64,000 bases of DNA from Escherichia coli O127:H6 str. E2348/69 (GCF_000026545.1 NC_011601.1); one strand, 5' to 3'. Numbered from the stretch's first letter, positions 20,896 through 26,674 are shown. The notes: generated by a model not told the origin, from the sequence alone. Numbers and translations are program-made.

Positions 20896-23367
20896 TTAAA
20901 AATCAGCCTGATTCGGGATCAGTTTTTGCCAGATAACTGAAACGTATTTTGCCTGGTAACGGGCGTCATCAAGTGCATTATGGCGCTCACCTTCGAATGG
21001 AATAGCCGTTCTGGCATCGAAGTCTATGGCTTTCCCCAGCTCAACGATTGTGCGTACATCGCGATCGTTGTAGTAACGCCACGGGCAGGGGATCCCCTGC
21101 CGTTCGTATGAACGGCGCAAAATCGTGTTGTCGAAGTTGGCTCCATTTCCCCAGACCTGAACAAAAAATTCACCGGAGTTTTCGTCGATAAATTCCCGCA
21201 ATTGTAACAGTGCATCATCTAACGGGATTTCATCGGTCATAATGGCAGATTGCGCTTCGCGTGATTGCTTAAGCCACCATTTAATGGTGTCCCGATCAAT
21301 GACCCCGCCAGCAGTTTCCAGATCGATAGTCTTACTAAATTCCGGTCCCATATCTCCGGTTTGCGGATCGAAAAATATTGCACCTATTGAGATGATCGGG
21401 GCATCAGGATTTTTTCCCATGGTTTCAAGGTCGATCATTAGATGGTCACACGTCCTGCTGGTGGATGTGATTTCTTGATGACCGTTCACCTTAATTGAGT
21501 GATCTGCCGTCTCGCCAGTTTCATTATCGCTATCGTGATGCTGATTGCCGTCAGTGTTCTCCTTGTGTGGATGTTCAGCGCCTTCCATTTCCTCCGGATC
21601 ATCTTCCTGAACTTCAACCTGATACTCTTCATCGAATGTTTCCTGGTATGTTGCGTCGCCCATCACCGCGCCACAATCAGGGCAGTTGCCGCCGCCGGTC
21701 TGACCGCAGGCGGTGCAGACTTTTTCCACTTCCTGTTGCGCCACTGGTTCAGGCTGTTTCGTTTCTGGCTCGTTTTGTAACGCATTTGGGCTGTTTTGTT
21801 CCGCTTTCTGGCCGTTCTGTTCCGTTTCTTGCTGGTTCTGATTCACTGAATCGCGGGTTTCAATCCCCTTCACCCATTTCGGATCATTCTGGTCGCTAAT
21901 CCCTGCAACAAATTCTCCGCGAGAGGCAGCAAGCAACTTATCGGCGTCAGGCTGGCTGATATTGGCTGCCTGCATAATTTTGTTTACTTCGTCAGCGGTA
22001 ACTTTTACCGGCTCTGGTTGTGCGGTCGTGTCAGATGCACCAGTATTTTGTTGTGAACCTGAGTATGTACTGTTTTTGCGGGCGAAATATTCTTCTTTCG
22101 TGATTTCAGTAGCCCCGGCAGCCAGCGCCTTATCCAGACCAGAAAGTTTGTTTGCGCGACCGTATTTTTCGCCATCCTTGTCGGTGAAGAGGAAGTAGAA
22201 CGGCCCTTCACGCTCTACAGATGGTTCGACTTCCACTTTGCATTCGGTTTTTTCGTTGTCCGGAATTGCCGTTTCCACTGCATCAGTTTCTGGTACTGGC
22301 GACGAGAGAGTATCAGTTGCGCTCTGATTTCTTCCTTCATCTTCAAACACGCCCTTTGTAGTCAGGTATTCAGTAATGTATTTGTTCAGTGCCACAGGGT
22401 CTTTGTGAATGTCGATCGGACGTTCACGGACAAGGCCAAAAATAGTCTGGCGGTCGTAGCGAAGGGCATCAGGCTGTTTGCGCATTGATGCCGAGATACG
22501 CTTCCAGTCTTCGCGGTCGTTGTCGATAACTTCATTTTTTGCCCAGCGATGGATGCTGCCGTCAATGTTTCCGGCATCCACATCACCAGGCCAGAGAGCG
22601 TAGGCCAGTTCGTCATCCAGTGTTTTCCATGTCTGCTTGTATTCGCGATGAATGGCAGCAATGACCGGGCTGATTTTTCCTGTTGAATTTTCAGTGTTCT
22701 GTTGATTGGTTCTGGCGCGGGCGAGATCAACAACAGACGTGTATTTTCCGGTTTCCTTGCGTTCACCTTCGCGACGTTTTTTCCAGATGCGCATCTCTGC
22801 CTGAATTTCGGGCCATTTGGCACCAGGCTTACATTTATGCTTAACCCACCCGATGGCATGCAGCTTAAGCTCCGGATACATGGCGTTAACTTCTGGCATT
22901 TTCATCAACGCTTCAACGATATGTCCGTCGAATGTTGCCATGTCTTCCTGCAACAATTCCTGTGCGCTAATAACCATATCAACGGTGATGTTTTCACATG
23001 TGTCGAACTTAACCATGACAGCGTTCGGTACTTCAGGGGCCAGCTTGTCAAAAGTGACGTTCATCGGATCTGATTCAGTCTCAACCGGGACAAAGGAAGC
23101 AGACTCCTCATCCCAGCGGTTTTCCTGCATATATTCAGCATCCCAGGAATCGAGGGCAGGGCGGGGTATGCCGGGTTTATCCTCACAGACAATAAATTTA
23201 TAAGCGCAGTCCTGAGCTGCAGGGAATTGCTCCAGAAATTGCCAATGAAATTTTGCGCGTGCGCGACGCTCATCACCAGCTTCAATGGCAGTGGCCACCG
23301 CAACAGCGCTATCTTCTTTTATGGCCTGTTCATCAGGAATAGCAGCGCAAATAAAGACTTTACTCAT
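20896..23367 (-). CDS. large prophage exonuclease with C-terminal DnaQ-like (DEDDh) 3'-5' exonuclease domain
   Basis: 823 aa; C-terminus has MIDLETMG ... HNALDDA motifs; central CxxC...CPDC zinc-ribbon-like cysteines; acidic low-complexity middle. Confidence 0.7.
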   Translation of the reverse strand: MSKVFICAAIPDEQAIKEDSAVAVATAIEAGDERRARAKFHWQFLEQFPAAQDCAYKFIVCEDKPGIPRPALDSWDAEYMQENRWDEESASFVPVETESDPMNVTFDKLAPEVPNAVMVKFDTCENITVDMVISAQELLQEDMATFDGHIVEALMKMPEVNAMYPELKLHAIGWVKHKCKPGAKWPEIQAEMRIWKKRREGERKETGKYTSVVDLARARTNQQNTENSTGKISPVIAAIHREYKQTWKTLDDELAYALWPGDVDAGNIDGSIHRWAKNEVIDNDREDWKRISASMRKQPDALRYDRQTIFGLVRERPIDIHKDPVALNKYITEYLTTKGVFEDEGRNQSATDTLSSPVPETDAVETAIPDNEKTECKVEVEPSVEREGPFYFLFTDKDGEKYGRANKLSGLDKALAAGATEITKEEYFARKNSTYSGSQQNTGASDTTAQPEPVKVTADEVNKIMQAANISQPDADKLLAASRGEFVAGISDQNDPKWVKGIETRDSVNQNQQETEQNGQKAEQNSPNALQNEPETKQPEPVAQQEVEKVCTACGQTGGGNCPDCGAVMGDATYQETFDEEYQVEVQEDDPEEMEGAEHPHKENTDGNQHHDSDNETGETADHSIKVNGHQEITSTSRTCDHLMIDLETMGKNPDAPIISIGAIFFDPQTGDMGPEFSKTIDLETAGGVIDRDTIKWWLKQSREAQSAIMTDEIPLDDALLQLREFIDENSGEFFVQVWGNGANFDNTILRRSYERQGIPCPWRYYNDRDVRTIVELGKAIDFDARTAIPFEGERHNALDDARYQAKYVSVIWQKLIPNQADF

Positions 23368-23459: not shown

Positions 23460-23705
23460 TTAAAGACCTGCCGGGATTTCGTTATTATCCTGGTGAATAA
23501 CTTTATCGACCGGGTAACAGTTACCGGGAATTTTCTGTTCGGTTGCTGCAGTCACACACTCCTGCATTGTCCTGTGAACACTGACTGCAATATCAACTGG
23601 CTCTCCGGAAACAAGAAAAACTGTCAGAACAAGTGCAAATGCTGTATTCATTGCCAGCATCCTTTTTGTATCGGACGTAAACGGGCCAGCATTGAAAGAA
23701 TGCAT
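23460..23705 (-). CDS. hypothetical small secreted/membrane protein (early-left region)
   Basis: 81-aa ORF with a hydrophobic signal-like segment MLAMNTAFALVLTVFLVSG; same strand as the exonuclease; start uncertain. Confidence 0.3.
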   Translation of the reverse strand: MHSFNAGPFTSDTKRMLAMNTAFALVLTVFLVSGEPVDIAVSVHRTMQECVTAATEQKIPGNCYPVDKVIHQDNNEIPAGL

Positions 23706-24394
23706 ATTTTATTTAATAGCTCCCGTTCGTGTTTTCTCTTGTTAATGGCATCTTCAGTAAATACAGGGTTACTGATAGTGACACCAATTTCAAAACAACC
23801 TTCAGACGTATTAACGTTTGGTAATAACGTTTCCATTATCGCGTCCTCAACAATGAATTTTGTGATGTGGTGCCTGGTGCCTCCAGGTGACGTTAACCAG
23901 TTAACAATTAACGCCGGATACAGAGAATCCACCCATAACACTGTTTTTGGTTTTAACTGTTCCGCGTGCGCTCAGCCGCATTCACCGCATCACAAAATTC
24001 ACTTTAAAAACGGCGGCAGAGCAGTCACGGAGTAAAACTGATACCGCCAAACGTCACCAGAAAATTGATAACAGAGGGCGTTGCAGCGGGGTTGTCGCTT
24101 AAGCGTATGGTCAACCTGACAACCCGGTGTCCTCAACGGGGAAGGAATAACCCCGCCATACTTACCGCCGCGCCATTTCGCGGAGTGCCACAACCGGAAG
24201 CGCACGGTCGAACTAAATTTAACGACACCGTACAGAGAGACCAATTTTGCCGTGCGCTTTCGCGTTATGCCCTGACTTTTCAGGGACATATCCTTTCAGT
24301 AAACTGTCAGTGCCGGATGTTCACCCGTGTCCGGCGCACGCACTCCACCTGACCCGTGGAGAACTCCTTAATTACCAACCCTCAGGAGGGTGAA

Positions 24395-24673
24395 ATGGAT
24401 AAAAAGCAAATTGAGGCCCTGCAATCTATTATTGAAAAACAAGATGAAGCTATCAGGATTCTTTCATATCGCACTGATATGATACTAAATATGCTTTCTG
24501 CATTAACGGCTGCGCTTGGTGGTACAAAAACAAACGTATACCGCGAAGTTGTTATTCAACAGATAGATAAATTTGAAAAAACCATACCAGGTATTAATGC
24601 TCATCTTGCAGAACAAGAGAAAGACCATGCTCTTATGGCAATTTCTTCAGTAGCTCTCCCGAAAGTTGAGTAG
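24395..24673 (+). CDS. hypothetical coiled-coil protein, opposite strand within the early-left region
   Basis: Track ORF 24356..24673; ATG 24395 preceded by AGGAGG (24383-24388); product MDKKQIEALQSIIEKQDEAIRIL... Confidence 0.45.
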   Translation: MDKKQIEALQSIIEKQDEAIRILSYRTDMILNMLSALTAALGGTKTNVYREVVIQQIDKFEKTIPGINAHLAEQEKDHALMAISSVALPKVE

Positions 24674-25046
24674 TTTTAATTGTTGTTTTGAAATAATCAC
24701 TGCTTTCACATTTGAGTGATTTCATGGCAATCCAAATGCGGGCCTCTGTGCCTGCATTTGGTTCCAGTTGCTGTAGACGTTTTGCGTCTTCCAAAAGTAA
24801 GGCGATAATGTGTTTCAGCTTCTCATCATTTGCTTGATTCTTGTTTTCAGGCGAATTCTGTCCGCCGAATAGGCGCTTCTCTTCATACAGACCTATAAAG
24901 GCACGACGCACGTTACCGGATATAGTATCGATGGTTTCTTTTTCTACGGTACTCAGGTCAAGAGTCGCCAGTTGAGAGCGAACCACATTCGATGCCATTT
25001 CCTGGAATGGTACTGGTAAATCTTTAAATTCCATCGTCAACCTCAT
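24633..25046 (-). CDS. hypothetical early-left protein
   Basis: 137-aa ORF directly downstream of the next ORF on the repressor side; no recognisable motif. Confidence 0.4.
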   Translation of the reverse strand: MRLTMEFKDLPVPFQEMASNVVRSQLATLDLSTVEKETIDTISGNVRRAFIGLYEEKRLFGGQNSPENKNQANDEKLKHIIALLLEDAKRLQQLEPNAGTEARIWIAMKSLKCESSDYFKTTIKTTQLSGELLKKLP

Positions 25047-25279
25047 CAGTCAGTGTTTCTGGTTAACCAGCGACGCGCGCCAGCTTCAGTTTTAAACGTT
25101 TTGCTTCTGGTATACGTCATCGCGGTAAACGTGCCGTCCTGGTTGGGGAACACGCCACATACCAGAGATTCGTTGTTGCCAAGATTGAGCATATCCATGT
25201 TGACCTCATTTCCCCTTAACGCCGGGGTAGCGGAACAAAAACCTGCTGCATAGTTATTAAAGTTGAACCCTGCCGTCAT
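25046..25279 (-). CDS. hypothetical early-left protein
   Basis: 77-aa ORF abutting the 24633..25046 ORF. Confidence 0.4.
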   Translation of the reverse strand: MTAGFNFNNYAAGFCSATPALRGNEVNMDMLNLGNNESLVCGVFPNQDGTFTAMTYTRSKTFKTEAGARRWLTRNTD

Positions 25280-25385
25280 GTTCTTACGCCTCGGGCTGGC
25301 TACTTAACCCCTGACCACTGCCTGGTAACTCGAAGTATTGCCCTGCATTCTGTGGGGCGGGGTGGGTTGGTATGAAAAGAAGGAT

Positions 25386-25420
25386 ACCCATAGGTATTTA
25401 AAAAGTAAATACCTATGGGT
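25386..25420. promoter_or_regulatory. 35-bp near-perfect palindrome (acccataggtattta-aaaag-taaatacctatgggt) downstream of the repressor gene; terminator or operator
   Basis: 15-bp arms are exact reverse complements; followed by aaattttt. Confidence 0.5.
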
Positions 25421-25463
25421 AAATTTTTGCGGTGTCTTAACTGGTGACTAGTTGTTTGGTGAG

Positions 25464-25883
25464 CTATGATGCGTTTTGTGCTTTCTTTTTACGGATTTCT
25501 TCGTAGATCATATTGTAATACTGTTTTTTCTCTTCAAGAGTTTTTAATAATTTATCCGCTTCACTTTCTGGCAGTTCGTCTAAGAGATCTAAAAAAATAC
25601 GTTGTCGTGGCGTTAGAACCCTTGTTTCATAACTGGAGGCTGTGTTCGTTGATGATGAAACGATACCATCCATCCATCCCCGGGGTAACCCAAAGGACTC
25701 TTCGATAATCTCCACCATATCATCAGCGATCCGTTTTTTTCCCTTTTTCCCCTCTGGGTACAACATTCTTGATACATAAGAAGGCTCGCGCCCGATCTTT
25801 CTGGCCACGTTAACCGCTTTACCATCGCATTTCTCATCACGAATTTTGATGAGTTGCTGTCGTCTAAATTCATATTTGTCCAT
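25464..25883 (-). CDS. prophage repressor, XRE-type HTH (RacR/CI-like), no LexA-type peptidase domain seen
   Basis: 139 aa, HTH around GKAVNVARKIGREPSYVSRM; divergent from a cro-like gene. Confidence 0.75.
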   Translation of the reverse strand: MDKYEFRRQQLIKIRDEKCDGKAVNVARKIGREPSYVSRMLYPEGKKGKKRIADDMVEIIEESFGLPRGWMDGIVSSSTNTASSYETRVLTPRQRIFLDLLDELPESEADKLLKTLEEKKQYYNMIYEEIRKKKAQNAS

Positions 25884-25983: not shown

Positions 25984-26265
25984 ATGGAAGAATTAAGAAT
26001 ATTTCTCAATTCTCTTTCGTCAGATGAACAGCGTATGTTTGCATGCGAGTGTGGTACCAGCATCGGTTATCTAAGAAAGGCATTGAGTAAAGGTCAAGTG
26101 TTAGGGGCATCGTTATGTGTCCTTATTGAGCGAGCCAGTAATGGTGAAGTTACACGTCAGCAACTAAGGCCTTTTGATTGGATGAATATTTGGCCCGAGC
26201 TGGAAGATACCAAAACGTTAACACAACCACTTTCTAGGAGCTTGATTCATGAAAATCAAGCATGA
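25984..26265 (+). CDS. Cro/YdaS-like HTH protein
   Basis: 93 aa, first rightward gene opposite the repressor; HTH-like CGTSIGYLRKALSKGQ. Confidence 0.65.
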   Translation: MEELRIFLNSLSSDEQRMFACECGTSIGYLRKALSKGQVLGASLCVLIERASNGEVTRQQLRPFDWMNIWPELEDTKTLTQPLSRSLIHENQA

Positions 26266-26674
26266 ACACATCCGCATGGCGATGAATGTCTGGGCGCATC
26301 CGGACGGCGAAAAAGTGCCGGCTGCGAAAATTACCAAAGCGTATTTCGAGCTGGGAATGACGTTCCCGGAACTGTATGACGACAGCCATCCGGAAGCCCT
26401 GGCCCGTAATACCCAGAAAATTTTCCGTTGGCTGGATAAAGACACCCCTGATGCTGTTGAAAAAATGCAGGCTCTGTTACCGGCGATCGAAAAGGCGATG
26501 CCGCCTTTGCTGGTGGCCCGTATGCGCAGCCACAGTTCTGAATATTACCGTGAGATCGTCGAACGGAGGGATCGGCTGGTGAAGGATGTCGATGATTTTG
26601 TTGCGTCAGCGGTTGTTTTGTATGACCAGATGAATCGCGGCGGCCCGGCAGGGAATGCTGTGGTGATGCACTAA
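26249..26674 (+). CDS. YdaT-like protein (Rac-type immunity-region partner of YdaS)
   Basis: 141 aa, overlaps the preceding gene; position matches Rac-type racR-ydaS-ydaT arrangement. Confidence 0.55.
   Translation: MKIKHEHIRMAMNVWAHPDGEKVPAAKITKAYFELGMTFPELYDDSHPEALARNTQKIFRWLDKDTPDAVEKMQALLPAIEKAMPPLLVARMRSHSSEYYREIVERRDRLVKDVDDFVASAVVLYDQMNRGGPAGNAVVMH

Follow-up and report, generated by a model that had tools for sequence, protein, structure and literature searches.

The window analysed here (the whole stretch of DNA, 64,000 nucleotides long) carries on its plus strand an open reading frame (ORF) of 92 codons at positions 24395-24673, from an ATG start codon through a TAG stop codon. This ORF is a genuine protein-coding gene under purifying selection. 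We consider it rather likely that it is a true moron of a Rac/Qin-type lambdoid prophage, that it resides in the slot which corresponds to that of sieB, and that it is transcribed independently in the lysogen, which it possibly protects. The gene has already been annotated as hypothetical and is filed in PHROG 18692; taken alone, it is an ordinary uncharacterised prophage gene. Its value as a lead is that it marks the sieB-equivalent slot in most E. coli genomes, a slot which is either empty or occupied by a small ORF from one of five or more unrelated families, which have one translation-initiation leader in common. It is this variable slot with its common leader that most deserves experimental work. 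The strains which carry the gene include the pathogens EPEC E2348/69 and EAEC 042.

The longest mechanical ORF at this position (105 aa in the ORF listing) opens with a GTG codon at 24356, but it is the ATG at 24395 which is the start in RefSeq and in all homologues. This ATG is preceded by the Shine-Dalgarno sequence AGGAGG (plus strand, 24384-24389), with 5 nt (GTGAA) in between. The first-pass annotation had thus correctly recognized a strong ribosome binding site but had counted its spacing as 6 nt. It had also placed the ORF on the plus strand within a block of minus-strand early genes, and the neighbouring ORFs and genes are indeed all on the minus strand. The overlap which it had reported with the 3' end of the next minus-strand ORF (137 aa) measures 41 nt (24633-24673), the two ORFs being convergent. 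The GC content of the ORF is 35-40%, that of the adjacent spacer 52-58%, and that of the flanking genes 43-50%.

Purifying selection is seen in codon-aligned comparisons with Salmonella homologues at 71-74% identity. The dN/dS values in the frame of the ORF are 0.25, 0.17, and 0.08, compared to about 0.8-9 in four other frames; the antisense frame which shares its wobble position with the ORF yields 0.17-0.43. Synonymous changes outnumber non-synonymous changes (Fisher p = 3e-6 to 3e-12), and the differences are distributed over codon positions 1/2/3 as 13/5/22, 11/5/22, and 4/0/18. Homologues with 71-82% identity are found in Salmonella prophages at the equivalent place and in the same orientation. 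The exact 92-aa protein is encoded on at least 1000 contigs. Among 50 copies of the ORF on viral contigs, 45 are intact, one is cut short, and four are frameshifted, so that the gene is dispensable in some hosts.

The encoded protein (10.3 kDa, pI 5.7, GRAVY -0.10) has no transmembrane segment, its top Kyte-Doolittle mean over 19 residues (0.93) being below the level of a membrane helix. The AlphaFold2 model obtained with a family alignment of 14 sequences (pLDDT 80, pTM 0.63), which superseded a poor model from a 3-sequence alignment (pLDDT 68), has helices at residues 3-41, 48-59, and 69-85. Hydrophobic residues occupy 79% of the heptad a/d positions of helix 1 versus 21% elsewhere, and one register is kept across the family. 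According to this model, the product is predicted to be a soluble three-helix protein with a long, heptad-patterned first helix. The gene had initially been described as encoding a coiled-coil. For helix 1, where a continuous heptad register extends over 39 residues, a coiled-coil is plausible on the basis of the model; the model as a whole, however, has three helices, and the initial description is supported in part.

An identical protein (RefSeq WP_000358771.1) is annotated in E. coli 042 and E2348/69 as "hypothetical protein". The sole family match is to PHROG 18692 ("unknown function"), and it is full length (residues 1-92 versus profile positions 1-92, E = 5.9e-63). The family is small: HMMER, run exhaustively against 1.84 billion representatives, retrieved only 13 members, and a profile search of 5.8 billion proteins retrieved 45 clusters. 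All named members are from Enterobacteriaceae and all are labelled hypothetical. A subfamily with a length of 91 aa shows 24-26% sequence identity. The cleanest set of 14 sequences, with members down to 24% identity, has R26, L31, S35, R50, E75, K76, and S85 as invariant residues.

Searches for a function returned no lead. Nothing above noise was obtained with Pfam and NCBIfam; the RelB-like type II antitoxin model of NCBIfam scored 15.9 bits versus a cut-off of 50, and an adjacent toxin gene is also lacking. None of the families in PADLOC-DB v2 was hit at E <= 1, which means that no match to a known anti-phage defence system was found. Profile searches against PDB sequences gave matches at chance level only (E >= 0.14), and structure and fold searches with the model yielded only generic helical matches. 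When the ORF protein was compared to GenBank phages by tblastn, no match was obtained, and a scan of viral contigs with a narrower family alignment retrieved the E. coli type only. In the literature, we found no study and no transcript, protein, or phenotype data under WP_000358771.1, and nothing informative for the 92-aa gene in publications on ydfC antisense transcription and on KilS.

Relatives at 33-47% sequence identity are located in other prophage types and in an island-integrase neighbourhood. Those at loci L136 and L137 are convergent with S24-type cI repressor genes. At L191, the gene is on the pL side and adjoins a HipA-like/DUF3037 pair. The members at L138, L189, L190, and L192 belong to the Cox-side early operon of integrase-repressor-Cox prophages. 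The one from Klebsiella oxytoca (L134) is beside an island integrase gene and near restriction-modification genes, with no lytic operon. All members examined, whether from E. coli, Salmonella, Klebsiella, or metagenomes, are encoded opposite to the early operon, cI-type repressor gene, or island integrase gene next to them, or converge with it. Canonical plus-strand terminators are found 33 nt (L136) and 20 nt (L138) past the stop codon. L136 also has a leftward promoter (10 of 12 matches) which would read antisense through the ORF.

Other cargo was encountered near family members: a 310-aa protein and a DUF6932 protein (L004/L005, 7011-8413), HipA-like and DUF3037 proteins downstream of cI (L191, 4628-6276), and a ParE/Phd pair in the early-left operon (L007, 4032-4594). 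These may be defence or toxin-antitoxin modules of the immunity-region neighbourhood.

The layout of the region is that of the ompW-adjacent prophage of E. coli E2348/69, with 100% sequence identity in the tested stretches, and the prophage of strain 042 is close. The prophage is a Rac/Qin-type lambdoid prophage and the operon is an early-left operon of the dicBF/Rac type. On the minus strand, from right to left, are a RacR/DicA-like repressor gene (25464-25883), a DUF1391 (ydfA/ydaF-like) gene (25046-25279), the convergent early-operon gene which overlaps the 92-aa ORF (24633-25046), the DicF sRNA (24011-24062), dicB (23648-23941), a DUF1482/ydfD-like gene (23460-23705), and a gene for an 823-aa exonuclease (20896-23367, annotated as 3'-5' exonuclease in E2348/69). 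The DicF sRNA is complete (Rfam RF00039, 72.5 bits versus a gathering score of 48, E = 7.5e-15). Because it is followed by dicB and the DUF1482/ydfD-like gene, we assign the leftward early operon to the dicBF type, as in K-12 Qin. To the right of the repressor gene are rightward cro/YdaS-like, YdaT-like, and replication genes, the YdaT/cII-like gene being at 26249-26674. The exonuclease ORF occupies the position of recE in Rac, and its N-terminal 600 residues are acidic, of low complexity, and undescribed.

The upstream early genes are separated from DicF by an untranslated, conserved spacer of ca 330 nt (minus strand, 24063-24392), which resembles the ydfC-dicF interval of K-12 Qin. The plus-strand ORF begins directly at the upstream edge of this spacer. 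The ca 330-nt spacer is part of the polycistronic dicBF transcript, from which an RNase III cut generates a DicF species of 190 nt (bioRxiv 10.1101/2023.04.14.536235). The distance from the DicF 3' end to a long-range stem at 24200-24257 (GCGCACGG...CCGTGCGC) is exactly 190 nt, in agreement with the RNase III site reported there. A 96-aa minus-strand ORF (23999-24289, PHROG 8854), of which a shorter form is a hypothetical protein in strain 042, extends over the DicF gene and the spacer; it is probably non-coding RNA sequence annotated as protein.

The dicBF operon of Qin (ydfABC-dicF-dicB-ydfDE) has in common with the window the DUF1391 gene, DicF, dicB, the DUF1482/ydfD-like gene, and the spacer with its RNase III stem. 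K-12 Qin, however, has no plus-strand gene, and its spacer runs directly into the stop codon of ydfC. The window lacks ydfB and ydfC and has instead the 92-aa ORF and the convergent gene, which codes for a MEFKDLP-type protein (137 aa as an ORF, 133 aa in RefSeq, PHROG 1363). Separate PHROGs match the two halves of this protein. Its N-terminal half (MEFKDLP...) is common to several prophages, and its C-terminal half (LLLEDAKRLQQLEPNAGTEARIWIA...) travels with the 92-aa ORF.

In the Rac prophage of strain K-12, sieB, a gene for superinfection exclusion or abortive infection which is also known from phages lambda and P22, is a single plus-strand gene between ydaF (DUF1391) and kilS/kilR, which are on the minus strand; it converges on the early-left operon, with overlapping 3' ends of sieB and ydaF. 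The ORF in the window has the equivalent slot and the same orientation, between the DUF1391-side early gene and dicF/dicB. The proteins themselves are different. Rac SieB is a membrane protein of 162 aa, whereas the 92-aa protein has no hydrophobic span of membrane-helix length; BLASTP finds no alignment between it and K-12 SieB at E <= 100, nor is there a Pfam match. The leaders upstream of Rac sieB and of the 92-aa ORF differ as well. Given the lack of similarity and of a membrane segment, the 92-aa protein does not belong to the SieB family.

Of 5426 complete E. coli genomes, 4315 have the spacer and 126 have the 92-aa ORF. To see what follows the leader that precedes the ORF, 132 leader copies were compiled from a viral-contig scan with the first leader hairpin (L012 onward) and from loci fetched earlier. 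In 65 of the 132, no plus-strand ORF follows. The 92-aa type is found in 22 copies and the 91-aa subfamily, a distant homologue, in 19. The other 26 copies carry non-family ORFs of 63-77 aa, namely 77 aa (15 copies), 73 aa (5), 63-69 aa (5), and 76 aa (1), which represent at least four unrelated families of small ORFs in addition to the 92/91-aa family. All of these non-family cargos belong to "unknown" PHROGs. Every ORF found after a leader copy starts at the same CCCTCAGGAGGGTGA(A)ATG junction. A remote homology of the non-family ORFs to the 92-aa family was ruled out (hhalign probability <= 0.15%). As judged from such sequence comparisons, the 92-aa gene is a cassette, which is present, absent, or replaced between prophages with common flanks. 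Comparison with related prophages was one of the checks that had been proposed in the first-pass annotation, and its outcome is in line with the independently expressed moron suggested there: the cassette comes and goes, its orientation is retained in relatives, terminators follow it in two relatives, and its GC content is low, from which we infer transcription in the lysogen.

The 83 nt upstream of the ATG are predicted to form three helices (H1, H2, and H3), based on folding and RNAalifold. Helix H1 (plus strand, 24312-24335), which has the form GCCGGA(UGU)...(GUG)UCCGGC, shows 99.5% of cells paired in 43 distinct leaders; in distant members, it reads GCCGGG/CCCGGC (L136), GCCUGG/UCAGGC (L137), and GCCCGG/UCGGGC (L191). 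Helix H2 (plus strand, 24343-24361; CUCCAC-N7-GUGGAG) has changes on both sides at two of its six pairs, with the compensatory variants CCCAAC/GUUGGG (L138) and CCCGAC/GUCGGG (L189 and L190); L009 has a different hairpin at this position. Helix H3 (plus strand, 24364-24388; from RNAalifold) is formed by CUCCU (24364-24368) and the Shine-Dalgarno bases AGGAG (24384-24388). In seven ORF-bearing leaders, the pairing of H3 is 100%, with a swap from U-A to A-U, and the helix is impossible in ORF-less loci because these lack the Shine-Dalgarno sequence.

When all three helices are considered, 95.7% of cells pair in the seven diverse ORF-bearing leaders, versus 31-46% in slid controls. The corresponding values are 94.2% versus 36-50% for a covariance-model alignment of the 43 distinct leaders, which lean towards structure since this alignment was fitted to the model and contains related sequences. 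Three to five pairs are changed on both sides (five in the 43-leader set), and none of 500 shuffles reaches the covariation score. At the level of sequence covariation, these data demonstrate a three-helix 5' leader whose predicted pairing includes the Shine-Dalgarno sequence. Loci without any plus-strand ORF retain helices H1 and H2 as well, which thus may serve the minus-strand DicF precursor, the plus-strand mRNA, or both. A few G-U pairs in H1/H2 favour the plus strand, and one C-A/U-G case (L003) favours the minus strand. Helix H3 makes sense on the plus strand only. It was also considered that the leader hairpins are intrinsic terminators, but there is no U tract behind them on either strand, which rules this out.

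A candidate sigma-70 promoter (TTTTCA-N17-TAAACT, 8 of 12 matches) is located at 24277-24305 on the plus strand. This exact pattern occurs once in the window versus 0.02 expected occurrences; the candidate is absent from the list obtained in a 9-of-12 promoter scan of the window. The predicted transcription start at ca 24311-24313 coincides with the foot of H1, so that an mRNA which starts from this candidate would begin with a terminal stem-loop. Promoter-like elements are found at equal distance to the ATG in the diverged leaders of L009 (9 of 12 matches), L138 (TG-extended TATTAT), and L003.

A scan of the window found no canonical terminator after the ORF. A 12-bp G+C-rich inverted repeat (CCAAAUGCGGGC...GCCUGCAUUUGG) followed by UUCCAGUU (plus strand, 24733-24762), which has a weak U tract and lies within the minus-strand CDS, is a possible weak terminator of the plus-strand transcript. 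The region has a fold z of -3.3, and none of 200 shuffles folds as well. The repeat is kept in L003 and L009, where one synonymous change results in a G-U pair on the plus strand only. On the minus strand, this repeat falls within the stretch that encodes the conserved EPNAGTEARIWIA motif, and it is kept in Salmonella homologues. Further downstream, between the DUF1391 and repressor genes, is a perfect 16-bp palindrome (25385-25421) with a terminator score on both strands. It could serve as an end for the repressor transcript and for plus-strand read-through from the 92-aa gene.

We propose the following mechanism. The 92-aa gene would be transcribed from its own weak candidate promoter at 24277-24305, and the protein would be made while the prophage repressor holds the early-left operon off. 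Upon induction, convergent early-left transcription together with antisense RNA would shut the gene down, following the logic of sieB/sas from P22. In that phage, the prophage expresses sieB under the control of the antisense RNA sas (PMC12197685). Genes antisense to the lytic genes of a prophage are typically accessory loci, with STMMW_20121 of ST64B as an example (Owen et al. 2020, PMC7067206). The 92-aa gene resembles morons and such antisense accessory loci in being small, opposite to lytic genes, present or absent, of lower GC content, and equipped with a candidate promoter of its own, as well as with its own terminator in relatives. Unlike them, the copy in the window has no canonical terminator, and its expression in the lysogen is what we infer here from the features listed.

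The small helical protein might act through protein-protein contacts and thereby benefit the lysogen. Considering the slot and the company in which the gene is found, interference with superinfecting phages may be the likeliest benefit, although we put this forward tentatively, as a possibility clearly short of an even chance. Prophage immunity regions often carry defence genes (PMC12724215). As these regions are a known source of such genes, the very small proteins encoded in the slot are cheap candidates for phage-exclusion screens. A more far-reaching version is that, in prophages of the Rac/Qin type, the slot which separates the early genes from dicF/kil is a hotspot which swaps unrelated proteins of 63-93 aa behind one leader that masks the Shine-Dalgarno sequence. 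These would be single-gene exclusion or defence factors made in the lysogen and switched by antisense transcription like sieB/sas, and the 92-aa family would be a new family of small anti-phage proteins. We consider this extended version rather unlikely.

A comparably low probability is assigned to the view that transcription as such is more important than the protein. A plus-strand promoter would fire against the early-left operon, and transcriptional interference or antisense RNA would damp leaky expression of the toxic dicF/dicB/kil in the lysogen, with the small ORFs as passengers. It would account for cargos which are mutually unrelated while leader and Shine-Dalgarno sequence are constant, and for a gene which is always convergent with the early operon; moreover, the toxic products of dicBF are controlled at several layers (bioRxiv 10.1101/2023.04.14.536235). 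A passenger ORF, however, is difficult to reconcile with strong purifying selection on the protein sequence, with seven invariant residues in members down to 24% identity, and with the retention of a strong Shine-Dalgarno sequence. In addition, about half of the leader copies are ORF-less and have only ydfC to read into.

We consider it still less likely that the gene functions in the lytic cycle or the establishment phase (in anti-defence, host takeover, or the lysis-lysogeny decision), with a regulated promoter that is active after infection rather than in the stable lysogen. A leader which sequesters the Shine-Dalgarno sequence suggests conditional translation, a YdaT/cII-like gene is present, and lambda has activator-dependent promoters which run antisense to early genes. 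On the other hand, we identified no activator site, and anti-defence genes usually have the orientation of the early operon to which they belong; the Klebsiella oxytoca member resides beside an island integrase gene and restriction-modification genes rather than in the context of a lytic operon.

The 3' overlap raises the question of whether the 92-aa ORF and its convergent minus-strand gene form a functional pair, either toxin-antitoxin-like or for specificity, in which the protein made in the lysogen binds the variable C-terminal domain of its partner. The identical 41-nt overlap is also found with other minus-strand partners, a 71-aa protein in Salmonella and HTH proteins of 171-214 aa in prophages with the integrase-Cox layout. 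The minus-strand proteins of 137, 71, and 171-214 aa (in the window, L003, L009, L138, L189, and L190) all end exactly 41 nt inside the plus-strand ORF, and the last 13 residues of the overlapping proteins are the antisense reading of the conserved C-terminus of the ORF. For each cargo type, the MEFKDLP-type protein has a particular C-terminal half, with overlaps of 11-41 nt. A functional pair would be in accordance with this and with the observation that the 92-aa type of E. coli and Salmonella invariably has the LLLEDAKRLQQ.EPNAGTEARIWIA domain and the 41-nt overlap. The association is loose, however. The 91-aa and 73-aa ORFs are accompanied by one and the same C-terminal domain, and the 69-aa ORF by a diverged version of the LLLEDAK domain, so that strict co-variation between ORF and partner domain is ruled out by shuffled combinations. 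L007 and L008 have no partner. Distant members also lack such a partner: the gene is directed at the repressor region in L136, L137, and L191 and at an integrase gene in L134, and in L138, L189, L190, and L192 it overlaps with genes for HTH or other proteins that are unrelated. We thus regard a functional pair as improbable, to about the same degree as a lytic or establishment role. The shuffled combinations of cargo and C-terminal half are better explained by block exchange between two conserved anchors, with the spacer as the left anchor and the N-terminal coding half of the MEFKDLP-type gene as the right one. An apparent match of L137 to the partner domain was discarded, as it is merely the antisense translation of the conserved 3' end of the ORF.

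The weakest alternative, a chance and unexpressed ORF on the antisense strand of an untranslated early-operon stretch, might appeal to the fruitless search for a function, a domain, or a literature record and to several short spurious ORFs nearby, but it is contradicted by the selection analysis (dN/dS 0.08-0.25 in frame), by a reading frame which is kept across genera and prophage types, by the retained Shine-Dalgarno sequence, and by the terminators downstream of distant members, and we consider it highly improbable.

Our preferred reading is thus that of a protein-coding moron at the sieB-equivalent slot. Two minor observations concern the spacers of the prophages compared here. In K-12 Rac (L133, 2906-3003), the kilS sRNA holds the position which is that of DicF in Qin-type operons, and the stem-forming sequence CAACCGGAGGCGCAC... 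upstream of the sRNA is common to the spacers of Rac (kilS) and of the Qin type (DicF).
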